A DNA stretch of 64,000 nucleotides from a virus (IMGVR_UViG_3300048549_001527), one strand, 5' to 3'. Positions 3,564 through 55,879 are shown, counted from the stretch's first letter. Program-made: numbers and translations. The notes: generated from the sequence alone by a model not told the origin.

Positions 3564-6496
3564 TTTTTAGCTTTTTTCTTTGCCATAATTTTCTTAGCCA
3601 TTTTATATACACCTTTAGCTGTAGCTTTGGCACCTTGAGCAACCATTGGAGCGGCAAGAGCAGCTCCTACAACTTCTGGCGGAATACTTTCCATTGGTGT
3701 ATCTTTTTTATATTTTTTAGTAAGCTCATTAGTTCCTTGCTCACCAGCACCACAGGATGCCTCTTTACGCATATCCTTATATGTAGGTTTTGCTTTTGGT
3801 TTATCAGCGTATTCATCCATTTCACCTGCAGCTTTTTTCTTTGCCGCCGCCGCAGCTGAAAATTTAGCTAAGTCTTCTTTTTCATCTTCGTCAATAGTTG
3901 GTGTAGTATTAATATGTTTCTTTGAGCTTTTTTCTTCACCATAGCCTGCTTTAAGACCGCCCATCATACCGCCATATGTTTTCTTTGTTGCAGATTTAGC
4001 ACTCATTGAAGGACGCTGTTTACCGCTTGCTTTATTTTCGCGTTCTTTGTCCTTTTTGATTTCTTCGGGGGTTGGCGCTGTATACTTTTCTAAAAACGCC
4101 ATAGCTTGCTCGTCAAGATTTGATTCTACGTAACCTTTATCACCAGGCTTTTTGCCGTGGTTCATAACCTTTTTACCAATAGCAGTAAGGTTACCTTTCT
4201 TATCATACATTTGATTGACAAGTTTCTTTTCTGATGGTGATAAAGTTTCATCAAGTTCTACTTCTTCGCGGATTTTAACTTTAAACATTTTTTCAACTGT
4301 TTGTTTACCCATAGTCTTAGCAAGATTAGTGATTAACCATTCACGTGGCTCTGTGTCAAGATCATCTACAAATTTAACAAAGTTTGTACCTGCGTTGCCA
4401 CTTGACAACATTTTTGCGGCTTTCATAAAGTCTGCTTTATCAATACCACCACTTTTCTTTGCGTATGCTTCAATACTTGCCGCAGCTTTTTTCATGGCAG
4501 GAGTTGCAGCTTCAATTATATTTTTATATGTTTTTGGCATCTGTTCGTTTCCTTCTCCGCGTAACGACGCAAGTGATCTTTGAGTTGAAGTCATGGTTTT
4601 CTTTGGCAGTTTACGGCCTGTTTTTACTGAACGGCCCATTGCCTTTGCGTGCGCTGCATCCTTAGCACGTTGAATAGCAATAGAGTCACCGGTCATTTTT
4701 GGCGCCTTTTCATCAAGTTGAGTTTCCTCTTTACGAACCTTGTCGGCAAGGTCTTTATCTGCCTTACCCCAAGTACCTGACGATTTTGTTATAAATGAAT
4801 TAACTCTTGCGTGTCCCCATTGCTCAGGAGTTGTGCCTGGGCGGTGACCTGTTCGCCATGCCGCCACGCCACGATTATAAACTTTACGTAAAATACCAGC
4901 AGGCATACCTGATTTCGCCGCTTTATCTTTTAAAGATTTGCCAGCTTTATCTTCTTGTAATCCATCGCCTTCGCAAGTACAAGGATCACAATTACATTGT
5001 CCGCAAACCCATTCCTCTACAAATGTTTCTGTTGCTTCATATAGTTCTGCAATATCTTCAATGTCAAACTCGTTTGCTTCTTTAACATCTTTTGGTTTGT
5101 ACATTTTAAATCTTTTATCAAATTTTACTTTTCCGTTTGCAGCATACAGCATATGTGGACGTTTCATAATACGTTTTCCCCATAGTCCTTCATCAAGACC
5201 TTCAACAAGTTCTTCCCAGATCAAGTCTTCCGTGAAACCCATAGCTCTTGCTTTTTTGGTAAACTTTGACTCTTTAGTCTTTGCTTCCTTATCACCAGGT
5301 GCAGGTTTGTACGCAGCAGGATTATCGTCAGACATCTTTGCGCCTTTTTCAAAATGAGCAGCGCGCGCATCTTTCTTATTTTTATCTACACCTTTATAAT
5401 AACCTTTTGGTTGAGAACCCGGACGATCTGACACGTCGCTATCTTGCGGCTTTGTCATTTTTTCCATGAACATTGCAAATTGTTCGTCAAGGCTAACTTC
5501 TTCCTTTTTTGAACGTGCCGACGCAAGTCGTTCTTGTTCTTTCTTTTTAACCATTGGTATCATTTTGCGCGCAAGTCTATCAATACGTGCAGGAGGTATT
5601 TTTTCCATACGTTTATCAATACGTTCTTTTTCAGCATATGACAAGCTTGCATACTTTTTAGGTTTTGCTAACCTATCTTTAATCATATTCCTAGCCGACT
5701 TTTGTGCTCTTTGTTTAATCTTTTTCATATCAGCTTTTTTACGCTTAGCCCGTTCTTGACCGCGCTTGATTTTTGCACGAGCCTTTCTCATAGACCGAGC
5801 TTTTTTAAATCTTTGAACTCTATTTAGAGCTTCATCCATTTCTAAGTCGTTTTCTTCTGACATGTTCATCCCCATGCTAACTAACGTTGCGATTTTGTCG
5901 GCATCCGTTTTTAATTTCTTAGGCAAATTTGATGTAAACTTTTTCATATCTGTCGATGCATAGCCTCGCATTTTAGTGCCAGAAATTCCAGATACATCAT
6001 CTGCGTCTGGGTCTCTGCTACCTGCTGATACTACTTTAATCTCATCAAACTTATATTCTTTGCCATTATATTTATTTAGTGTAGTATTAAATTCTTTAAC
6101 TCTATCAGAGCCAGCAACCAAAACAACCCGTTTAAATGATCTTTCAAGTTGTTTCATTAGTTGGAAAATAGTTTTAGCATTTGATTTTTTAACAACAGAA
6201 CCAAAAGCTTTTTGGGCAAAATTGATTTTGTCTTCGTAACCTAATGGATTTTTCTTTTTGTCAACTGTATGTGTAAGGAATACGTGCGGTATTCCCTTTT
6301 CAGATTTAGCAACAGAAATAACTTTATTAACTAATTTTTCATGGCCTGCGGTCATAGGGTTCATTCTACCCCACGCAACAACTGCTGTCGCACCAGCGGC
6401 CTCGTCTATCGTAGGCTCAAGCTCAATGTATTTGGCAGAGTCAAACTCTTTAAAACCTGCAATTTTTCTGTCTTTCTTTTTTTCTTTATCAGCCAT
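3560..6496 (-). CDS. 978-aa modular protein: N-terminal cytidylyltransferase/NadD-like (HIGH-motif) domain plus several internal-protein-like modules
   Basis: WGRMNPMTAGHEKL (TxGH), VAGSDRV and SAG.RDPD...GISGTKMR motifs; repeated LDE/xxE boundaries downstream. Confidence 0.75.
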   Translation of the reverse strand: MADKEKKKDRKIAGFKEFDSAKYIELEPTIDEAAGATAVVAWGRMNPMTAGHEKLVNKVISVAKSEKGIPHVFLTHTVDKKKNPLGYEDKINFAQKAFGSVVKKSNAKTIFQLMKQLERSFKRVVLVAGSDRVKEFNTTLNKYNGKEYKFDEIKVVSAGSRDPDADDVSGISGTKMRGYASTDMKKFTSNLPKKLKTDADKIATLVSMGMNMSEENDLEMDEALNRVQRFKKARSMRKARAKIKRGQERAKRKKADMKKIKQRAQKSARNMIKDRLAKPKKYASLSYAEKERIDKRMEKIPPARIDRLARKMIPMVKKKEQERLASARSKKEEVSLDEQFAMFMEKMTKPQDSDVSDRPGSQPKGYYKGVDKNKKDARAAHFEKGAKMSDDNPAAYKPAPGDKEAKTKESKFTKKARAMGFTEDLIWEELVEGLDEGLWGKRIMKRPHMLYAANGKVKFDKRFKMYKPKDVKEANEFDIEDIAELYEATETFVEEWVCGQCNCDPCTCEGDGLQEDKAGKSLKDKAAKSGMPAGILRKVYNRGVAAWRTGHRPGTTPEQWGHARVNSFITKSSGTWGKADKDLADKVRKEETQLDEKAPKMTGDSIAIQRAKDAAHAKAMGRSVKTGRKLPKKTMTSTQRSLASLRGEGNEQMPKTYKNIIEAATPAMKKAAASIEAYAKKSGGIDKADFMKAAKMLSSGNAGTNFVKFVDDLDTEPREWLITNLAKTMGKQTVEKMFKVKIREEVELDETLSPSEKKLVNQMYDKKGNLTAIGKKVMNHGKKPGDKGYVESNLDEQAMAFLEKYTAPTPEEIKKDKERENKASGKQRPSMSAKSATKKTYGGMMGGLKAGYGEEKSSKKHINTTPTIDEDEKEDLAKFSAAAAAKKKAAGEMDEYADKPKAKPTYKDMRKEASCGAGEQGTNELTKKYKKDTPMESIPPEVVGAALAAPMVAQGAKATAKGVYKMAKKIMAKKKAKK

Positions 6497-49256: not shown

Positions 49257-49511
49257 ATGTCCTTAAAAATAATCCAGTTCATAGCTAATTACTCGAACTC
49301 AGCAAAACTGTTAGATAAGCAAATAGCAGGTAAAGATTTTGGTGTACCTATTGAAAAGGTAGACATAATGGGAAACGTTGGTTTAGCAGGTAGCTATGGT
49401 GTTAAAACATTACCGTGTTTTATACTATTAAAGGATGGTGTTGAAATTGATAGAGTTCAAGGTACAATTCCGCCGCGTTTAATAACTGAAATGATTAATC
49501 GTCATTCCTAA
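49257..49511 (+). CDS. Thioredoxin-fold protein lacking CxxC
   Basis: F.A.YSNSAK, KVD, YGV.TLP.FILLKDG.E.DR..G. Confidence 0.7.
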   Translation: MSLKIIQFIANYSNSAKLLDKQIAGKDFGVPIEKVDIMGNVGLAGSYGVKTLPCFILLKDGVEIDRVQGTIPPRLITEMINRHS

Positions 49512-50070
49512 AAAATATATTGCAATTTCTAACGTGATTAATGTTTCTTTTATTGCATGCTTTCTTTTGTATATCAGAACTTATCTTGTCTCTGCGGTAT
49601 CCACGCCTTTCCCACTCATCAATCCATTCTCTTTCGTGCCTTTCAGCAATATGACCATTGCCGCCTTGCCCAGGCCTTGCGGCTGAAAACAAAACGACGC
49701 GTGGATTTTTAGAAACAAGATAGTCAAATATTTCAGCATGGAATTTTTTGTCAATATGTTCCATAACTTCAATAGACACAATTGCGTCATAAGTTGGTAA
49801 TATTGGTGATGGTTCAGGATCTTTAGTTATATCCCAAACAATATTTTCACAACCTTCATTTTGAAACATATTAGGATCCATCGGGGCAGGTTCTACGCCA
49901 TGAACGATTGGAATATCGGAATTGGACATGTAATTACAATAATGCCCAATTCCGCAACCAAACTCAAAAACCGAAGTTGGTTTAAATTTATCTACAAAGG
50001 ACCTTATCATGCCATCGTCAAAGTTATTAGGATACCATTTTTTATGGTCTTCAAAAGTCCAGTGTGCCAT
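49495..50070 (-). CDS. Class I SAM-dependent methyltransferase
   Basis: FEFGCGIG, SIEVMEHI, FSAA.PGQGG.GHI.E. Confidence 0.8.
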   Translation of the reverse strand: MAHWTFEDHKKWYPNNFDDGMIRSFVDKFKPTSVFEFGCGIGHYCNYMSNSDIPIVHGVEPAPMDPNMFQNEGCENIVWDITKDPEPSPILPTYDAIVSIEVMEHIDKKFHAEIFDYLVSKNPRVVLFSAARPGQGGNGHIAERHEREWIDEWERRGYRRDKISSDIQKKACNKRNINHVRNCNIFFRNDD

Positions 50071-50073
50071 GGT

Positions 50074-50232
50074 TTATTCTTTACGCCAGATTGTCCATGC
50101 TCCCCAAGCAATTGCTGCATAAGCAATCATTTGAGTTAGCGGGCTGAATACAATAATGGCAGCACCAGCGGCAACCATTAAAATTCCGTCCATACTTGAA
50201 CGCTCTGTAAGTTTTGATTTTAACCAATTCAT
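50074..50232 (-). CDS. 52-aa two-TM membrane protein (not in ORF track)
   Basis: MNWLKSKLTERSSMDGILMVAAGAAIIVFSPLTQMIAYAAIAWGAWTIWRKE. Confidence 0.65.
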   Translation of the reverse strand: MNWLKSKLTERSSMDGILMVAAGAAIIVFSPLTQMIAYAAIAWGAWTIWRKE

Positions 50233-50543
50233 TTTTTGGTCTCCTTCTGTTTTATTACTTTTGCTTTAGATCCAGCTTCTAGCGTTCGCAGCCGCAATTC
50301 TAAATCATCAATTTTCTTTGTGACTTTAGGATAGCGTTTACGCCAAGCTTCAGGATCGTCTTGTAGCCAATCCCAACCAAAGCGGTCTACTAAATAATCT
50401 AAAAATGCATCAAACTTCGACATCAGATAAAGTGCTGCGTGTGTATTTCTGAACCATGCCAAAAATGCTGCGCCAATTACTGATCCGCCGATAGCTGTAT
50501 ATATCCACAGCGTATCGCCAAACATTCTAGTTAACATTTCCAT
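50229..50543 (-). CDS. Membrane-anchored hypothetical protein
   Basis: N-terminal TM segment; basic coiled tail. Confidence 0.6.
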   Translation of the reverse strand: MEMLTRMFGDTLWIYTAIGGSVIGAAFLAWFRNTHAALYLMSKFDAFLDYLVDRFGWDWLQDDPEAWRKRYPKVTKKIDDLELRLRTLEAGSKAKVIKQKETKK

Positions 50544-50735
50544 TTATTTATCCTTATGATTATGAGTTCCGTTTCCGTGCGTATGACCATGACCAACATA
50601 TGACCATATAGCCCATCCACCTAAACCAACCGGTACAGCATGTAATAATAAATGCAAGATAAAAAGTATTGTACTTATAGCATAAGTTATATGTGCTGCT
50701 TTACTGTGAAAAAAATTGTCGAATAATTTAGCCAC
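50544..50735 (-). CDS. Small membrane protein with His-rich tail
   Basis: Hydrophobic core; GHGHTHGNGTHNH tail. Confidence 0.5.
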   Translation of the reverse strand: MAKLFDNFFHSKAAHITYAISTILFILHLLLHAVPVGLGGWAIWSYVGHGHTHGNGTHNHKDK

Positions 50736-50976
50736 CGAAAGTACTCATTATCATTGGACCAAAGGCTGTTGCAACAAAACCTAGTATTGCAATAGCTATA
50801 AGACCAAGGATAAGCCACTTTGCTTTGAAATCGTCGACTCGCATTGCAAATCCAATAACTTCGTTGTTCATTATTCTAAAACTTAAATCAAAAGTTCCTT
50901 CTGGTGTATCTTCATCTTTTAATGGTACAGGTTTTTGTAATATTTTTGGTACTTCAATTTCATCAGACATTTTCAT
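50728..50976 (-). CDS. Small membrane protein
   Basis: C-terminal TM segment. Confidence 0.55.
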   Translation of the reverse strand: MKMSDEIEVPKILQKPVPLKDEDTPEGTFDLSFRIMNNEVIGFAMRVDDFKAKWLILGLIAIAILGFVATAFGPMIMSTFGG

Positions 50977-51700
50977 TTTCTTTCGTGTATTTACAATAAT
51001 GGTTCATACCGTGATCGTATGCCCCGTCGAATGGCATTCCTTTTTTAAATGCACGTAATCTTCCACGCCATTTATCTTTTGTTCTTTGCCATCTACTCAT
51101 TTTTCTAATATTACCGAAGTAGTTGATGTACCGCGGTTGCGAATGGTGTCTATATCCCATTGCAGCAAAAGGAACACAAGTGACCAAGTCGTTATTGTTA
51201 ACATGGCGGAAATGAGGTATATGAGCAAACGATTTAACAAATTTTCTAGTCCCTACTCTTGGCGACCCATATGTATATAAAGCTGTAACTTTATCGCCGA
51301 GTCGGCTTGTTGCAATTGTTGCCATTGCAGCTCCTAAAGAATGGCCGCAAATAAACAAATGTTTTCCATCTGTTTTCATTTTAGATAAAGCCTTTTCAAT
51401 GTCAGGCCATACTTTGTTTACTTCTTCTTGAAACCCGTTATGTACTAATCCGTGTCCATTGTTTGGTTTATCTGGAAAGGCGTTTAAATCTGCCTTAATA
51501 TCAGAAAACTCTTTTGGTTCGGTACCGCGAAATGCAATTGTTATTTCTTCTTTGTTTGAAATGATGTGGCATTGTGCACCGTTTACTTCAACAAACTTGT
51601 GGGCTACATAACCTAATTTTTTATATTTAGGTTTTGCCTCAGGTCCGTCTAAGTATGCAAGCTCAGCTACTTCTGCCATCTTTGCACAATTTTCTAACAT
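50963..51700 (-). CDS. Class 3 lipase (alpha/beta hydrolase)
   Basis: AFRGTE, VHNGF, GHSLG (GxSxG), YTYGSPRVG, NNNDLV..VP, DHGM. Confidence 0.9.
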   Translation of the reverse strand: MLENCAKMAEVAELAYLDGPEAKPKYKKLGYVAHKFVEVNGAQCHIISNKEEITIAFRGTEPKEFSDIKADLNAFPDKPNNGHGLVHNGFQEEVNKVWPDIEKALSKMKTDGKHLFICGHSLGAAMATIATSRLGDKVTALYTYGSPRVGTRKFVKSFAHIPHFRHVNNNDLVTCVPFAAMGYRHHSQPRYINYFGNIRKMSRWQRTKDKWRGRLRAFKKGMPFDGAYDHGMNHYCKYTKENENV

Positions 51701-51702
51701 TG

Positions 51703-52044
51703 TTACTCCCCTGCTGCTAACATTTTTTCTAATATATCATCTTGTCTCATTTCCATGATATCTATTTGTATTTGTTGCATGTCGTGAAACGTTTCATGCC
51801 TTGCATATTTTGAAGCGATTGCTCCTGATAATTCAAGATGATTCATCTCAGTTTGCTTTTTTAATTCTTTAACTTGAATTTCTAATTTTTCCGTATTAAT
51901 TATAAGATTATTAATTTGTTCTTGCTGCTTTATACTTTCTGCAGTATTTTGTTCTTGAAAATAACCTAATGTCGCTACTTCGTTTTCCAAGTTGTTAATA
52001 GTGTTTCCCATAGCAAAAAACGTTATGAATGCTAAAATTTCCAT
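51703..52044 (-). CDS. Membrane-anchored coiled-coil protein
   Basis: Hydrophobic N-terminus; heptad pattern. Confidence 0.55.
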   Translation of the reverse strand: MEILAFITFFAMGNTINNLENEVATLGYFQEQNTAESIKQQEQINNLIINTEKLEIQVKELKKQTEMNHLELSGAIASKYARHETFHDMQQIQIDIMEMRQDDILEKMLAAGE

Positions 52045-52257
52045 TTACTTACCTTTGCTTAACAGTTTTGCTTTAATGGCTTCGCTTGGACTGACCGGAA
52101 CATCGGCCGGTCGCCGTGGCGATTCTTCCACTTTTCCATCTTTTCGTGTAGTACTGCGTCGTGGCGAATTACCAGAAATTTGAGCTCTGAGTTCTGCAAT
52201 TCTTCTTCTGATATCTCGAATTTGTTTTCTAGTACTTTCATAATAGTCATTAGTCAT
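52045..52257 (-). CDS. Basic hypothetical protein
   Basis: 70 aa, coupled in the operon. Confidence 0.5.
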   Translation of the reverse strand: MTNDYYESTRKQIRDIRRRIAELRAQISGNSPRRSTTRKDGKVEESPRRPADVPVSPSEAIKAKLLSKGK

Positions 52258-52378: not shown

Positions 52379-53074
52379 CTATTCTGATAACGGATTATCT
52401 AATGCTTCTTGTATTGTTTCTTTGAGGTCCTTTTCTAATAATCTCATTTCACTATCAATATTAGTTTGTGTATCACGCATAGTATTACGTACGTCTTTTT
52501 CAGACGCTCTTATCGTCGCTTCAACTTCACGGATAGACGAAGTTACGTCTTTTTGAAGTTCGTTCATTTCAGTACGAATACCTTCAAGAGTACCACCAAT
52601 ACTATTTTGTGTATTCTTAATTCTTGCTTCTGAATTGTCAAGGTTAGTTGAAATTGTATCTCTTAAGTTTGCCATTGTATCTTGGTTATCTTTAAGAGTT
52701 ATTCTTAGCCTTTCTTCGAAGGCATCAAGTTTTGCGTATATATCTTTACGCAAATCTCTTACGGTGGTTTCAGCCGCAATAACCTGATCTTCTAATACTC
52801 CTATTAAATTTTCAGAACGGGCAATGTCACCTTTTAAATCGTCTTTAATATCTTGTGTATATCCTATAGCGTCTTCAAGCTTTTGTAGTTGCAATGCATT
52901 TGCTGCGGCGATTTCGTCAATGTCAATGTTTTGAACAATTTCTTTCATGTCCATATAGTCCGCATAAAATTCAAAACCGGCCCATGCGCCACCACCTAAA
53001 GTAGATAGTGCGGTTAAGACAGCAAACATTTTACCACCTTTAAACGTGGTTCCGGCAAATTCAAATTCAGCCAT
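52379..53074 (-). CDS. Inner-membrane-anchored long coiled-coil protein
   Basis: N-terminal TM (FAVLTALSTLGGGAWAGF) then about 190 aa of amphipathic helix. Confidence 0.65.
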   Translation of the reverse strand: MAEFEFAGTTFKGGKMFAVLTALSTLGGGAWAGFEFYADYMDMKEIVQNIDIDEIAAANALQLQKLEDAIGYTQDIKDDLKGDIARSENLIGVLEDQVIAAETTVRDLRKDIYAKLDAFEERLRITLKDNQDTMANLRDTISTNLDNSEARIKNTQNSIGGTLEGIRTEMNELQKDVTSSIREVEATIRASEKDVRNTMRDTQTNIDSEMRLLEKDLKETIQEALDNPLSE

Positions 53075-53077
53075 ATA

Positions 53078-53488
53078 TTACTCCTCGAAAGATAATTCTT
53101 TCAACTGCTGAAGCTCTCTTCTTAAACGTTCTAATTCCAGCGATTTTAACTGTAATTCCATTTCATATAATCTATTACAATCAATTCTTTCTTTAGGTCT
53201 TGCGCCGAGTGGTATAACAATCCTTGCATATACACCAACGTTATCAACTCTCCTATCATTAACATATCGATTCACATCATCATAATAACCGCCGTCAATA
53301 AGACCAGTTACACCGAGCTCAAGTTGTGTAGCCGATCCGATGGCATTAGAACAATCTAAATCACCAGCCCTAAATTTATCGGATTGGTAATTACCTGGTG
53401 CACTCGGTAATGCCAAACTTACCGAACCAGAGTCTGCGTTTACTGTTGTCGTAAACAACATTAAACACAATGAAATAATATAACGCAT
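53078..53488 (-). CDS. Secreted protein with signal peptide and Cys pair
   Basis: MRYIISLCLMLFTTTVNA/D; VGVYARIVIPL beta-hairpin; C-terminal coiled coil. Confidence 0.6.
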   Translation of the reverse strand: MRYIISLCLMLFTTTVNADSGSVSLALPSAPGNYQSDKFRAGDLDCSNAIGSATQLELGVTGLIDGGYYDDVNRYVNDRRVDNVGVYARIVIPLGARPKERIDCNRLYEMELQLKSLELERLRRELQQLKELSFEE

Positions 53489-53495
53489 AATGTTC

Positions 53496-53870
53496 TCACT
53501 TTAATTTGGAGCATATCCTTGATTTTACTCCGGTTGATAGTACATCATCCCTCAAAAGTTTAGAGGTAGTACATATATATACAGCCTTAGCTTTGTGTTC
53601 ACTTTTGATATAAACCTCAAATTGTTTCTTTTCTAAATAACCAAGCTTTATAACTTTATCTTGTGAAGCAAACGGAAGTGCCTCCCAATATTTATCAAAG
53701 ACTTCTATTTCGTAATACTCTACATCTGTTCTTCTATTCCATATATCCATAGTTGTCACCAACACACCATCTACGTACGCAGGTCGTAACTCAGGGTATG
53801 TTGGCGTCAATTCGTGTGATGTAACCGCAGTACTTATTAACACAAAAATCAAACTCACTAGGTATTTCAT
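53496..53870 (-). CDS. Secreted Ig-fold/periplasmic chaperone-like protein
   Basis: Signal peptide ending AVTS/H; beta-rich; YICT...SRIC Cys pair. Confidence 0.45.
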   Translation of the reverse strand: MKYLVSLIFVLISTAVTSHELTPTYPELRPAYVDGVLVTTMDIWNRRTDVEYYEIEVFDKYWEALPFASQDKVIKLGYLEKKQFEVYIKSEHKAKAVYICTTSKLLRDDVLSTGVKSRICSKLK

Positions 53871-53909
53871 TTTTAATCCTTCACTTTACTCTTTACGCAA
53901 ATTAACACC

Positions 53910-54413
53910 TTAGTCTGCGATACACTCTGCAACAACATTAGCTTTATATTCACCACCTGGTAGTGATTTGCCTACGCCATACTTTGCTTCTGATTCAACT
54001 TGAAACCAAGTAGACCCAGCTACACTAAGATCGTATTCAGTGTGATTATCGTATTCAATTTTAGCTGCTTCATATCCTGACATATTAGTATCTGATGTAT
54101 TAGATACTGTAACTTCGCCATCCCACGTTACTGAGTCACTAAGACTCGGTGCGGAAGTAAACGATGTTGGCCAGGAAATTTTAGCGGTATAGTAGTCTGC
54201 AATAGCAACGTCATAGCGTACAACTGGATAAACACCGCCGTCCGCTGGGATTGTGCTCAATTCGTCTGGTGTAGGGTTACCATAAACCCCAGCTGTGTCT
54301 GTAAAAATTGAGCATTTTGACGCAACGTTACCGGTGATTGGAGTTTCTGCTGCGCCTACAGATCCGCCTAGCATAATAGCTGCTACGCTACTAAATATTA
54401 GATGTTTGAACAT
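53910..54413 (-). CDS. Secreted pilin-like (fimbrial subunit-like) protein
   Basis: Likely start 54413; signal peptide SVGA/A; N-terminal ITGNVASKCSI; C-terminal PGGEYKANVVAEC. Confidence 0.5.
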   Translation of the reverse strand: MFKHLIFSSVAAIMLGGSVGAAETPITGNVASKCSIFTDTAGVYGNPTPDELSTIPADGGVYPVVRYDVAIADYYTAKISWPTSFTSAPSLSDSVTWDGEVTVSNTSDTNMSGYEAAKIEYDNHTEYDLSVAGSTWFQVESEAKYGVGKSLPGGEYKANVVAECIAD

Positions 54414-54423
54414 ATATTTCTCC

Positions 54424-55323
54424 TTATCGTTCATATTGAGAGCGTACCATAGATTTATGATTAGCATCAGATGCCAAGTTTCTCATCGCTCTTCGGTTGT
54501 CTGGATAACTAGATGAAGGCAATACTAAAGTATCTTCGTATATACCTCCAGGAATAGTTATTTCATAATATGGTACAATCTTTGGATTTAACGATAAATC
54601 AGCTAAGATTTTTTGTTGCGCGGTACTATCGACTAATTTGTCAATATTATTATTACCGCCAAGCTGTTCTTCCAAATCATCCTCTACTTCATTATTGGTT
54701 GTTTGTTCTATTTCTTCTTCGTCTTCTACATTTGCTTCACGGTTCAATTCAGCCTGAACCCATTCATCATAATAAGGATCTCCAATTGACGGTGGAACGG
54801 CAAGTGAAGCTAAATATTCTTGTAATGCTGTCGAATATCCAGGACAACTTGGATCTGATAATGGTGAAAGACATTTATAACTATCATCTACCACCATCTT
54901 ATAATTATAAACCACAAATGGATCCGTAACCGTACCTTCTCCTTCAACACTTATTTCTCCATCTCCCCACCTAGAAGAATCTGTATATCCAAATCTAAAA
55001 AATTTTCTTACAGACCCACCTGGGTTACCACTCCAATCATCTGTTTCTTCAAAAATATTTTGCCCAGGATTTGCAAGGTCTTCGTTTGAAATTGTAACCT
55101 TTGCGTCTGCCTCAGGATCTTTTACCATTGTATATTGATAAGCTAAACCATTTACTTCTACTGTAATATAAGGTGAAGCTGAATCAGGTAATACATTTTT
55201 CATTGCCCACGCTAAAGCATCCGCTGCGGCGTTATTTGTTGAATGATACGTTGTATCAGAGTAACAATAAGAGGAGGAGGCCGCCAACAATGCCACCGCC
55301 GAACAAAGTAGACTTAGTCTCAT
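54424..55323 (-). CDS. Secreted acidic protein
   Basis: Signal peptide; beta-rich N-domain; CLSPLSDPSCPG motif; acidic linker. Confidence 0.6.
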   Translation of the reverse strand: MRLSLLCSAVALLAASSSYCYSDTTYHSTNNAAADALAWAMKNVLPDSASPYITVEVNGLAYQYTMVKDPEADAKVTISNEDLANPGQNIFEETDDWSGNPGGSVRKFFRFGYTDSSRWGDGEISVEGEGTVTDPFVVYNYKMVVDDSYKCLSPLSDPSCPGYSTALQEYLASLAVPPSIGDPYYDEWVQAELNREANVEDEEEIEQTTNNEVEDDLEEQLGGNNNIDKLVDSTAQQKILADLSLNPKIVPYYEITIPGGIYEDTLVLPSSSYPDNRRAMRNLASDANHKSMVRSQYER

Positions 55324-55828
55324 CGTTCATATCCTTTATTATATTACTTTGCGGATCTTCAGGTTGTTCATCGCGATTTGCTATCCATGCTGCTTTAGCT
55401 GCGTCCCCAATCATACCATCATAAGGGCAAGGTGTTCCTGCATCCATCATAGCGTTAAATACGCGAGGATCTTGGCACATCACTGAAACCGCAGCAACTT
55501 TCATTCCCATATCATATAATGTTTTAGCGTTCTTTAACTTTTCACAATTCATATCACGAACCATCTTGGCACCTGATATACCCAATATTTGTGTTTGGAC
55601 TGCGCCGGAAACTCCAACTGTACATAAGTCTGAGTTAGCTGAATTAATCGAAGGGGCGATCGCCGACGGCGGTGGAGAATTAACTGTAGTCTCCGATGTA
55701 CTATTACTATTGATAGTACTTTCTGTTGTACTTTCTGTAACTATTGGCTCTGCCTCCACTGCGGTTGTTCCAATGAAAGGTATAAATAATAAAAACAGAA
55801 AGAGTAAATGTTTAGTCATAATGTTCAT
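55256..55828 (-). CDS. Secreted Cys-rich protein with C-terminal hydrophobic anchor
   Basis: Signal peptide AVEA/E; Ser/Thr-rich linker; four Cys; LFGGGIVGGLLLLLLL tail. Confidence 0.65.
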   Translation of the reverse strand: MNIMTKHLLFLFLLFIPFIGTTAVEAEPIVTESTTESTINSNSTSETTVNSPPPSAIAPSINSANSDLCTVGVSGAVQTQILGISGAKMVRDMNCEKLKNAKTLYDMGMKVAAVSVMCQDPRVFNAMMDAGTPCPYDGMIGDAAKAAWIANRDEQPEDPQSNIIKDMNDETKSTLFGGGIVGGLLLLLLL

Positions 55829-55871
55829 CCCATATTAGTAATGATAAAAGCATACTTTACTCTATTATATA

Positions 55872-55879
55872 TATTTATA
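55872..55879 (-). promoter_or_regulatory. T4-type late promoter for the secreted-protein operon
   Basis: Exact TATAAATA, 44 nt upstream of ATG 55828. Confidence 0.7.

Follow-up and report, generated by a model that had tools for sequence, protein, structure and literature searches.

To our knowledge, pilus chaperones and donor-strand complementation occur only in bacterial chaperone-usher systems, always together with an usher, and every pilus chaperone that we know of has two domains. The systems PapD-PapK, FimC-FimA/FimH, Caf1M-Caf1, CfaA-CfaB and the archaic CsuC-CsuA/B are the closest described counterparts of the operon analysed here, which is carried on a stretch of 64,000 nucleotides (the window) from an uncultured marine T4-like phage. 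On both sides there is an Ig-like periplasmic chaperone domain, predicted for the phage protein g124, and each has a beta-sandwich subunit, in the phage g167, whose first and last strands are conserved. Sec export and disulfides also appear to be common to both, as judged on the phage side from sequence, and in a predicted complex the last strand of g124 lies parallel to the last strand of the subunit while its first strand engages too, as in donor-strand complementation. The phage module differs in that it has no usher, its chaperone-like protein is a single domain of about 105 residues where the bacterial chaperones have two, and its proteins have no Pfam or profile-profile similarity to the bacterial ones. 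Moreover, the phage set is encoded by lytic phages behind a late promoter, and the pair comes with four further proteins, exported or anchored, that fall into no known family.

Two-component spanins (lambda Rz/Rz1, and the overlapped type as in the related locus L091) resemble the module in the weakly hydrophobic N-terminal segment and coiled coil of g231 and in being likewise late and often near lysis genes, whereas the module has no lipoprotein partner. T4 Sp and Imm and T5 Llp are exported envelope proteins that act on incoming or progeny phage and are not part of the virion. These are single small proteins, mostly early, whereas the module consists of six co-inherited late genes that include a chaperone-subunit-like pair. 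In the Csc clusters of Gram-positive bacteria, the genes for WxL and DUF916 proteins are neighbours, and their products make up surface complexes that lack an usher. WxL-domain proteins are found, weakly, among the AFDB matches of g167 (rows 8 and 17) and a DUF916 protein, again weakly, among the matches of g124 (row 17), yet the Csc clusters belong to monoderm organisms.

Results

The minus strand carries six open reading frames from 55828 to 52379, at the starts given in the preliminary description (Table 1). The mechanical reading frame of g167 opens at 54467, and the N-termini of homologues favour the later start listed. The exact late promoter reported ahead of the operon is present, and 49 of the 59 distinct related loci have the same box, some 38 nt ahead of their first gene. 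The window holds 17 copies of it versus 8.9 expected, and most of the minus-strand copies stand just upstream of minus-strand genes.

Table 1. Promoter and genes of the operon in the window.
Feature	Length	Position	Strand	Basis
Late promoter box TATAAATA, T4-type		55872-55879	minus	exact match, 44 nt upstream of g190 ATG
g190, first gene	190 aa	55256-55828	minus	ORF
g299	299 aa	54424-55323	minus	ORF
g167	167 aa	53910-54413	minus	ORF, start set by homologues
g124	124 aa	53496-53870	minus	ORF
g136	136 aa	53078-53488	minus	ORF
g231	231 aa	52379-53074	minus	ORF

Comparison of gene neighbourhoods, proposed earlier as a check, reveals that the genes co-occur as a unit. Among 80 loci from IMG/VR and five from ENA/NCBI, the five exported genes have the same order in every locus that is sufficiently long, g299 begins within g190, with an overlap of about 70 nt, in nearly all relatives, and g231 comes after g136 with inserts of 2-2055 nt between them. 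These comparisons support the view that the operon is a late, co-inherited unit of exported proteins, its late timing being read from the promoter box.

The operon is made of two separable sub-modules. The g167/g124/g136 trio is present in the same order in the cultured T5-like Vibrio phage Bennett (HMM E values of 2e-4, 4e-7 and 3e-11, respectively, the g136 match being Bennett gp150), and g136 homologues occur in 54 records of Vibrio T5-like phages. The g190 domain is found with 52-58% identity in Pelagibacter podophages and in myophage Mosig; Roseobacter phages and Ralstonia phage RSP15 carry it too. Tail-fibre genes precede the module genes in T5-like and podophage genomes. In Vibrio phage Bennett, Pelagibacter phage HTVC033P and Roseobacter phage CRP-810, the neighbours of module parts are holin, endolysin or lysozyme genes; in locus L048 they are a spanin pair, and locus L096 has a CHAP-domain gene nearby. 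Near-identical DNA is present in seawater metagenomes from at least a dozen studies. The literature searched holds no description of such a module, in keeping with the initial proposal that the system is undescribed.

The five consecutive products g190, g299, g167, g124 and g136, first noted for their classical signal peptides and paired cysteines, keep both traits across their families. All have Sec-type signal peptide features, and nearly all homologues in the five families retain the basic residue, hydrophobic core and small-residue site that precede a conserved mature N-terminus. The mature cysteines are invariant and even in number in each family, four in g190 and two each in g299, g167, g124 and g136. 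Given the Sec signal peptides and the invariant cysteine pairs, the five products should fold in the oxidising periplasm. No product of the module carries a lipobox, no Pfam, NCBIfam or PDB sequence match was found for the module proteins, and their families in the Atlas are almost wholly viral.

g124 consists of a signal peptide followed by a single PapD-like Ig domain of the pilus-chaperone N-domain or MSP kind. Its AF2 model (pLDDT 86.6) comprises one domain of about 105 mature residues; the mature protein opens with an invariant histidine, and C100 and C120 are invariant. The top PDB matches by Foldseek are DraB, PapD, SafB, FaeE, FimC and Caf1M (E from 2.4e-4, TM by query about 0.6). Likewise, VIA Z scores are 10.0-10.3 to FimC, Caf1M, SafB and DraB, 9.4-9.6 to PapD and 9.0-9.4 to CsuC, and the VIA alignment lays residues 18-124 on chaperone residues 1-114 (~98 residues, rmsd about 3.2 Å), thereby covering the whole N-domain. 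The first non-viral neighbours in the Atlas are PapD_N clusters (TM 0.69 and 0.63). MSP and glycosidase Ig domains match the g124 fold with scores similar to those of chaperones. At the level of sequence, PapD_N (PF00345) has no match in 39 members of the g124 family at E values up to 10 and no six-frame match in five relatives, and hhalign against FimC, YadV, SfmC, YehC and YfcS of E. coli gives a probability of 3.9%. The product had been called chaperone-like, and its modelled fold, which matches the N-terminal domain of pilus chaperones with a Z of about 10, agrees with that; we predict that g124 is a one-domain relative of pilus chaperones, at the level of the fold. A two-domain boomerang chaperone (PapD_N plus PapD_C, about 200-230 residues) was considered and rejected, g124 being a single-domain protein of 124 aa; all 54 homologues examined measure 120-130 aa.

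g167 carries a signal peptide and a beta-sandwich of the pilin or adhesin type. The start ITGNVASKCSI and the end GEYKANVVAEC, previously likened to fimbrial subunits, are both present and belong to two strands that are invariant in the family, I-x-G-x-V-x-S-x-C at the N-terminus and G-x-Y...A-x-C at the C-terminus. The AF2 model has a pLDDT of 86.7, above 93 over the mature domain. Foldseek places the PapG pilin domain, CfaB and CsuA/B at the top of the PDB matches (E 2e-3 to 3e-2), the AFDB cluster list is headed by DUF4402 and SCPU (E 2e-4 to 3e-3), and in the Atlas feature search SCPU (0.95) and DUF4402 (0.93) are the first named families. The VIA-wide search puts generic, unrelated Ig-like adhesin domains first, with Z at most 8.0. 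The modelled fold is consistent with the resemblance to fimbrial subunits, its nearest families by Foldseek and Atlas features being SCPU and DUF4402. These share with g167 an N-terminal strand with a cysteine and a C-terminal G-x-Y strand; they differ in that the TM scores lie at 0.4-0.54 and neither SCPU (PF05229) nor DUF4402 (PF14352) has a match in g167 or in 32 members of its family at E values up to 10. The cysteine pattern of g167, from first to last strand, is unlike what we take to be the pattern of CsuA/B.

Prediction of g167 together with g124 yields a score of 0.69, versus 0.00 for the best of three controls, and passes a mark that is reached by 58 of 80 solved complexes and by 2 of 110 mismatched pairs. 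Three runs share at least 90% of their contacts, with a partner pLDDT of 81. In the model, residues 115-122 of g124 lie alongside g167 159-166 in parallel and g167 34-41 in antiparallel orientation; these residues and g124 16-25 lie against g167 157-167 and 31-38. The last strand of g124 thereby fits between the first and last strands of g167, in the geometry of donor-strand complementation, so that for this pair the multimer check put forward in the preliminary description passes its controls in silico. The strands on either side of the inserted one carry the invariant C34 and C164 of g167, and a disulfide between these two within one molecule might close the groove. The alternating stretch I26-G28-V30-S32 of g167, which is invariant, is modelled with low pLDDT when the protein is alone and is left free in the complex. 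The interface is enriched in conserved columns of g124 (10/23 versus 12/83, Fisher p 0.004) and not in those of g167. The model's memory of solved chaperone-subunit complexes may account for the pass of the complex prediction.

The layout of g190 comprises a signal peptide, a Ser/Thr-rich stretch, an SPPPSAI motif, a four-cysteine domain (about residues 67-157) and the C-terminal hydrophobic segment described for the first gene, located at residues 173-190. The four-cysteine domain is very conserved, far more so than its neighbours, and the sole family match is PHROG 20531, whose function is unannotated. g299 is composed of a signal peptide, a beta-rich N-domain, an acidic spacer and a conserved C-terminal domain that ends in MVRSQY, and has one Cys-x8-Cys-Pro-Gly-Tyr unit (C151, C160). 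It has no match in Pfam or by PDB sequence, and a profile search yields 396 representative clusters at 50% identity, including forms of 500-1159 aa that have other N-domains and up to 17 tandem CPGY repeats with the same C-terminal domain. g136 has a signal peptide, a conserved N-terminal strand with the motif SLNLxLP and a C-terminal coiled coil; Cys46 and Cys104 bracket a beta region with a variable loop, and PHROG 37374, again of unannotated function, is the sole family match. Its amphipathic strands are conserved, the first one being much less amphipathic in the T5-like version. Outer-membrane beta-barrel proteins usually end in a C-terminal aromatic residue; the C-terminal end of g136 has none, and the product lacks a lipobox.

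g231 opens with a Gly/Ala-rich segment, after which come some 190 aa of coiled coil or amphipathic helix. The protein had been described as an inner-membrane-anchored coiled coil. The coiled coil stands, whereas firm membrane anchoring is less certain because the segment, rich in Gly, Ala, Ser and Thr, is only weakly hydrophobic, its Kyte-Doolittle score staying below 1.6 in every 19-residue window. Several length classes of g231 differ by 11 or 22 residues. Its coiled coil weakly matches a PHROG tape-measure family (E 5.5e-4), the only structural PHROG match in the module.

As initially noted, no usher-sized gene is at hand. There is no usher among the large ORFs scanned in the window and no Pfam Usher match in the module, and the Usher HMM (PF00577), which does match in E. 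coli as a positive control, gives nothing at E values up to 1 when run on five relatives, of which one is 91% complete. Downstream of the module, the window encodes a lipase and small membrane proteins. The suggested tie of the module to lysis through this lipase is weakened, since the lipase adjoins the module in only about 10 related loci, a minority. At 10-30 kb from the module, relatives encode a canonical endolysin and an i-/o-spanin pair whose genes overlap and which has an LLTGC lipobox. Matches of phrog_739 to genes adjacent to the module are weak, and the same model matches 10 of 14 control genomes. The module was also considered as the relatives' own spanin, and this was rejected because a separate endolysin and overlapping spanin pair are present elsewhere; the products of the module, moreover, have no lipobox.

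Discussion

We tentatively favour, as a possibility that falls just short of probable, that this late T4-like operon encodes products that act in the envelope of the infected cell and not in the virion, as a periplasmic, membrane-tethered assembly and not a surface pilus. g124 would cap g167, its last and first strands lying against the last and first strands of the subunit. With neither an usher nor any other outer-membrane pore encoded, g167 would be kept or handed on within the periplasm and not threaded to the surface. The receiving strand would likely be either the invariant N-terminal strand of g167 itself or the conserved N-terminal strand of g136, and the outcome may be a small oligomer or a short polymer. 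g190, through its hydrophobic tail, g299 and g231 would tether the assembly to the inner membrane and reach outward, with g299 perhaps serving as a binding head on an acidic spacer with a conserved docking end. As to purpose, our guess is an envelope change of the exit phase, either conditioning before lysis or the release at lysis of periplasm-matured proteins that bind debris or receptors. It is also conceivable, if improbable, that the module is an usher-less donor-strand system in which g124 loads g167 and subunits polymerise, or dock through exchanged strands onto g136 and g299, into a disulfide-stabilised envelope lattice or fibre that is freed at lysis and coats debris, receptors or progeny virions.

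Could the Ig-like folds instead be generic, with the proteins acting singly in the periplasm, as exclusion factors or by inhibiting or binding the host's envelope machinery, much as T4 Sp and Imm or T5 Llp do, and with no chaperone-subunit mechanism or joint assembly? The lack of sequence homology to PapD_N or SCPU, the best structural Z of g167 being to unrelated adhesin Ig domains, and the occurrence of the two sub-modules apart in other phages all agree with separate action, as does the conservation of the g190 domain, which is what one expects of a binder of a conserved host target. We nevertheless regard separate action as unlikely, if credible, given that the genes of g167, g124 and g136 remain neighbours in an unchanged order in both T4-like and T5-like phages, that their complex prediction passes in a specific donor-strand geometry while controls score 0.00, and that the conserved residues of g124 cluster at the interface. 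The pilin-like and chaperone-like pair could instead belong to a true surface fibre or pilus that crosses the outer membrane through an usher supplied by the host or a phage pore that escaped recognition, such as one formed by several copies of g136, whose two amphipathic strands bracket a variable loop above the coiled coil; the alternating N-terminal strand of g167, invariant and free in the complex model, would also fit. This appears quite improbable, in view of the missing usher in the phage genomes searched, the absence of any lipoprotein and of a C-terminal aromatic residue in g136, the much weaker amphipathicity of the first strand in T5-like g136, and late expression, which leaves little time for a useful appendage. 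We know of no chaperone-usher systems in SAR11 or roseobacters, the hosts of related phages, and this too counts against a surface pilus.

A role in lysis, as a trans-envelope complex that acts like a spanin or helps one to break up the outer membrane, perhaps with the downstream lipase and small membrane proteins of the window as partners, would account for the i-spanin layout of g231 and for the position of module parts near lysis genes in Bennett, HTVC033P, CRP-810, L048 and L096. The endolysin, i-spanin and lipobox o-spanin that relatives carry 10-30 kb away, the want of a lipobox in the module members and the minority of loci with the lipase make this highly improbable; besides, in small genomes nearness to lysis genes may simply mark the end of the late region. 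That the products are normal components of the virion, or help to assemble such components, we find barely credible: the late promoter and the place of the genes after tail-fibre genes in T5-like and podophage genomes speak for it, and against it stand the signal peptides and invariant cysteine pairs of all five proteins, the periplasmic-chaperone fold of g124 and a structural PHROG match limited to the weak tape-measure one of g231. T4-type virions assemble in the cytoplasm, which argues the same way.

If the donor-strand reading is true, a one-domain version encoded by lytic phages would extend the donor-strand principle to viruses and to a setting without an usher, and a phage structure matured in the periplasm and acting after lysis, if that reading holds, would be one for which there is no described precedent. 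The 396 clusters of g299 and the wide spread in metagenomes would mean that an abundant group of ocean phages alters the host envelope late in infection, and the cultured Vibrio phages with the homologous trio, which have laboratory hosts, make the question directly open to genetics and biochemistry.

The operon and its conservation

The source phage of the window is uncultured and T4-like; its genes include those for a gp43-type DNA polymerase (best identity 44%, to cyanophage S-RIM8), a gp46-like nuclease, a gp41 helicase and a gp39/52 topoisomerase. The minus strand from 55879 to 52379 contains all six genes of the preliminary description, named here by product length in amino acids. They are closely packed and have the G+C content of the remaining window.

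Genes of the module in order of reading, with the cysteines invariant in each family
Gene	Coordinates	Strand	Invariant cysteines
g190	55256-55828	minus	C69, C95, C118, C134
g299	54424-55323	minus	C151, C160
g167	53910-54413	minus	C34, C164
g124	53496-53870	minus	C100, C120
g136	53078-53488	minus	C46, C104
g231	52379-53074	minus	

Relatives of g299 are numerous, 208 in a protein collection clustered at 90% and 396 representative clusters at 50% identity. We compared 80 IMG/VR and 5 ENA/NCBI loci, each with a g299 relative, whose proteins are 41% to 96% identical to those of the window. Wherever the contig is long enough, the order and orientation of the five signal-peptide genes (g190 to g136) are constant; g299 overlaps g190 by about 70 nt in relatives, median gaps at the three junctions after that are 9, -1 and 3 nt, and g231 lies downstream after an insert of 2-2055 nt. 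The genes had been proposed to form a unit, a view that scattered occurrence would contradict; given their constant order wherever contigs are long enough, it is borne out.

The N-termini of all five signal-peptide families vary in sequence and are constant in kind, with a basic residue, a hydrophobic core and a small-residue site. In each family a conserved mature N-terminus follows directly after the predicted signal peptide, and mature g124 invariably begins with His-Glu. The number of invariant cysteines is even in each of the five mature proteins, which fits folding in an oxidising periplasm. The C-terminus of g190 is a hydrophobic tail, and a lipobox is absent from every module product. 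The N-terminal hydrophobic segment of g231 is weak and rich in Gly, Ala, Ser and Thr; it resembles signal-anchor-release (SAR) domains.

An exact T4-type late-promoter box, TATAAATA, lies 44 nt 5' of the g190 start. The window holds 17 copies of this box against 8.9 expected, those on the minus strand mostly directly upstream of minus-strand genes. Most related loci share the g190 box: 49 of the 59 distinct ones have it about 38 nt 5' of g190. By analogy with the T4 paradigm, the module would be expressed late in infection. Four RNA libraries from three studies contain short contigs that agree with stretches of the module (0-3 mismatches, depth 2-5); blind to strand and starts, and possibly reflecting DNA carry-over, these contigs are compatible with transcription in nature and fall short of proof. 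As judged from sequence, the operon of putatively exported proteins with its late-promoter box is real and conserved, and it is from these features that export and late timing are predicted.

At least a dozen studies, dated 2018 to 2025, have seawater or marine metagenomes that contain near-identical DNA (93-100% of sampled words). Three runs labelled freshwater also hold DNA near-identical to window 52379-55879. Among 50,697 phage records, megablast with the region and tblastn with g299 and g167 gave no match to a cultured phage. A pattern-limited scan with the g299 alignment across 185,579 species genomes of bacteria and archaea turned up no relative, which falls short of proving absence.

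Downstream of the module on the same strand (49495-52257) come genes for a basic protein of 70 aa, a coiled coil of 113 aa that weakly matches an Rz-like PHROG, a class 3 lipase lacking a signal peptide and four small membrane proteins, as well as a methyltransferase-like gene. Only about ten related loci have the lipase and the small membrane proteins beside the module; the basic protein, the coiled coil and the methyltransferase-like gene have counterparts only in the closest relative, L006.

Features of g299, g190, g136 and g231

These four proteins are described from their sequences. The hallmark of the g299 family is a conserved C-terminal domain of about 75 residues ending in MV-x-x-QY. 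g299 is the founding, short member; longer ones of 500-1159 aa (for example P0193, P0195, P0199 and P0200) share the domain, ending in MV-D-x-QY. The long forms are secreted and have varied N-terminal domains differing from that of g299. Several of these appear to begin like carbohydrate-binding modules, a reading unconfirmed by Pfam, which gave no match to the long proteins. A repeat of about 22 residues with the core N-P-L-Y-D-x-x-C-P-G-Y-x-x-A-Y-x-x-Q-Q-C is present once in g299 and in up to 17 tandem copies in the long forms. Where contigs allow, the long-form genes, too, come after a g190-like gene and overlap it.

The four-cysteine domain of g190 (residues 67-157) is nearly invariant within the T4-like clade and is 52-58% identical in the Pelagibacter podophages HTVC033P, HTVC115P, HTVC202P, HTVC023P and Baldr and in the myophage Mosig; it is present too in Roseobacter phages and Ralstonia phage RSP15. 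Because its conservation is far above that of any neighbouring gene, the domain may target a conserved host component. g136 has a conserved alternating N-terminal strand (SLNLxLP), a Cys-bracketed beta region with a variable loop, and a C-terminal coiled coil. g231 is a coiled coil whose homologues fall into length classes of 159, 162, 183/184, 186, 195, 220 and 231 aa, with steps of 11 or 22 residues between several of them.

Searches with Pfam and NCBIfam returned only coiled-coil noise (g231) for the module proteins, and the PHROGs that g190, g124 and g136 matched are all of unknown function. PDB sequence-profile searches with the g299, g190 and g136 alignments gave nothing meaningful, and an ESM Atlas feature search with g299 no usable match. 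A Cys-closed hairpin shared by g136 and g190 was considered and rejected, as hhalign pairs only their signal peptides; hhalign likewise shows no relation of g299 to Mosig gp201 or to g167. GenBank lists the g190-like gene of Roseobacter phage CRP-810 as 'OmpA family protein', a label that Pfam does not reproduce.

Predicted folds of g167 and g124 and their predicted complex

Structure was predicted for two single proteins, g167 and g124, and for one complex. The g167 model has a pLDDT of 86.7 overall and above 93 across the mature domain. Its best PDB matches in Foldseek are chaperone-usher subunits (PapG pilin domain, CfaB, CS17, CsuA/B, FimF/G), with weak E values of 2e-3 to 3e-2; its best AlphaFold-DB clusters are DUF4402 and spore-coat-protein-U (SCPU) proteins (E 2e-4 to 3e-3), and an Atlas feature search also points to SCPU (0.95). 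A Foldseek-independent aligner places generic Ig-like adhesin domains on top, with Z at most 8.0, and the BFVD viral structure library held nothing at E up to 1e-3. PapD_N, SCPU and DUF4402 were not raised in Pfam at E up to 10 by any member of the g124 and g167 alignments. The earlier comparison of g167 with fimbrial subunits therefore holds as a description of the modelled fold but does not establish family membership, given the weak E values and the generic ranking.

The fold of g124 (pLDDT 86.6) is clearer. Its PDB list is headed by the pilus chaperones DraB, PapD, SafB, FaeE, FimC, Caf1M, SfaE and CfaA, and the independent aligner gives Z of 10.0-10.3 (FimC, Caf1M, SafB, DraB), 9.4-9.6 (PapD) and 9.0-9.4 (CsuC), aligning residues 18-124 with chaperone residues 1-114, the entire N-terminal domain. 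Its nearest non-viral Atlas neighbours are PapD_N clusters. MSP domains, which structural classifications treat as PapD-like, and glycosidase Ig domains score about equal to the chaperones. The suggestion that g124 is chaperone-like is thus supported by fold in Foldseek, the independent aligner and the Atlas, but not by a sequence-level link, the hhalign probability against five E. coli chaperones being 3.9%. The literature searched held no description of phage-borne SCPU-like or PapD-like proteins.

The predicted complex of g167 and g124 scores 0.69, a mark reached in 58 of 80 solved complexes and 2 of 110 mismatched pairs, and the best of three controls scores 0.00; three runs share at least 90% of contacts, with a partner pLDDT of 81. 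In the model, the last strand of g124 (115-122) runs parallel to the last strand of g167 (159-166) and antiparallel to its first (34-41), and the g167 C-terminus is contacted by the g124 N-terminal strand (16-25) and residues 46, 47, 49 and 98. Donor-strand complementation in PapD-type complexes has the same strand arrangement. R47 of g124, at the predicted interface, is invariant, and conserved g124 columns are enriched there (10/23 vs 12/83, Fisher p 0.004); those of g167 show no such enrichment. The modelling supports binding of g124 to g167 and predicts that a one-domain PapD-like protein clasps a pilin-like one by strand complementation; as complexes of this type abound among solved structures, the high score may reflect likeness instead of binding.

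All four invariant cysteines of the pair lie at or near the predicted interface, C34 and C164 of g167 on the two strands bordering the inserted g124 strand; a disulfide joining these two, if formed, might close the groove. The four positions are kept in homologues from T5-like Vibrio phages. Intramolecular staples or thiol exchange are possible roles.

Two sub-modules in other phages

HMMs built from all six families reveal parts of the module in other phages. The cultured T5-like Vibrio phage Bennett (Demerecviridae) encodes g167-, g124- and g136-like proteins, gp148, gp149 and gp150 (E 2e-4, 4e-7 and 3e-11), in the module's order and with the cysteine positions retained, after two very large genes and about 600 nt 5' of a holin and an endolysin; relatives of g190 and g299 are absent from it. 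The annotated start of gp149 (4765-5067 of the Bennett locus) gives no signal peptide; as the open frame reaches upstream to about 4636, the deposited start is possibly too far 3'. The converse, a g190-like gene without these three, is seen in Mosig, HTVC033P, CRP-810 and the 72-kb contig L096. Except in CRP-810, a gene for a large secreted protein follows; its product contains an acidic spacer in Mosig and HTVC033P, and Mosig next has a coiled coil with a membrane segment. g299 resembles the large Mosig and HTVC033P proteins in architecture only. The window operon is therefore a fusion of two units, each of which occurs elsewhere without the other.

Possible function of the module

Generic folds in proteins that act separately are an unlikely yet serious alternative: no sequence-level link ties g124 or g167 to PapD_N or SCPU, g167 aligns best with generic adhesin Ig domains, and the two sub-modules occur apart in other phages. 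Against this stand a complex prediction that scores high while its controls score 0.00, the conserved g124 interface and the constant company of g167, g124 and g136. A surface pilus, to which the pilin-like and chaperone-like folds would lend themselves, is improbable, because without an usher the assembly would stay in the periplasm. That the proteins are virion parts, for which the late-promoter box would speak, is barely credible beside five families with predicted signal peptides.

A spanin-like device is about as improbable as a pilus, or marginally more so. In its favour, parts of the module adjoin lysis genes in the unrelated phages Bennett, HTVC033P and CRP-810; at one locus (L048) a spanin pair lies just upstream of a module part, and in L096 a CHAP-domain gene lies downstream. 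Three related T4-like records, however, have a spanin pair 10-30 kb away from the module: G001 (91% complete) encodes an endolysin, then an i-spanin overlapping an o-spanin with an LLTGC lipobox, and the remaining two hold homologues of both G001 spanins. A close relative has a textbook lysis cassette (L091, 232-2200) about 30 kb from its module (L027) in the same IMG/VR record: its endolysin carries a peptidoglycan-binding-like repeat at the C-terminus, and its i-spanin is overlapped by an o-spanin whose lipobox reads LLTGC. The window holds no homologue of the spanin pairs or of this cassette, so the spanin genes of its phage presumably lie outside it. The T4 holin model PF11031 matched neither the relatives nor any control genome and so says nothing about holins here. 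Since relatives have spanin pairs of their own and the lipase accompanies so few loci, the module does not serve as the spanin in these phages; it may assist at lysis.

We favour, as a guess, an envelope change tied to the exit phase. Here g124 would clasp g167 in the periplasm by strand complementation, the invariant N-terminal strands of g167 and g136 being candidate exchange strands, and the assembly, with g190 and g231 as its tethers and g299 as an extension, would alter the host envelope as the phage leaves the cell.
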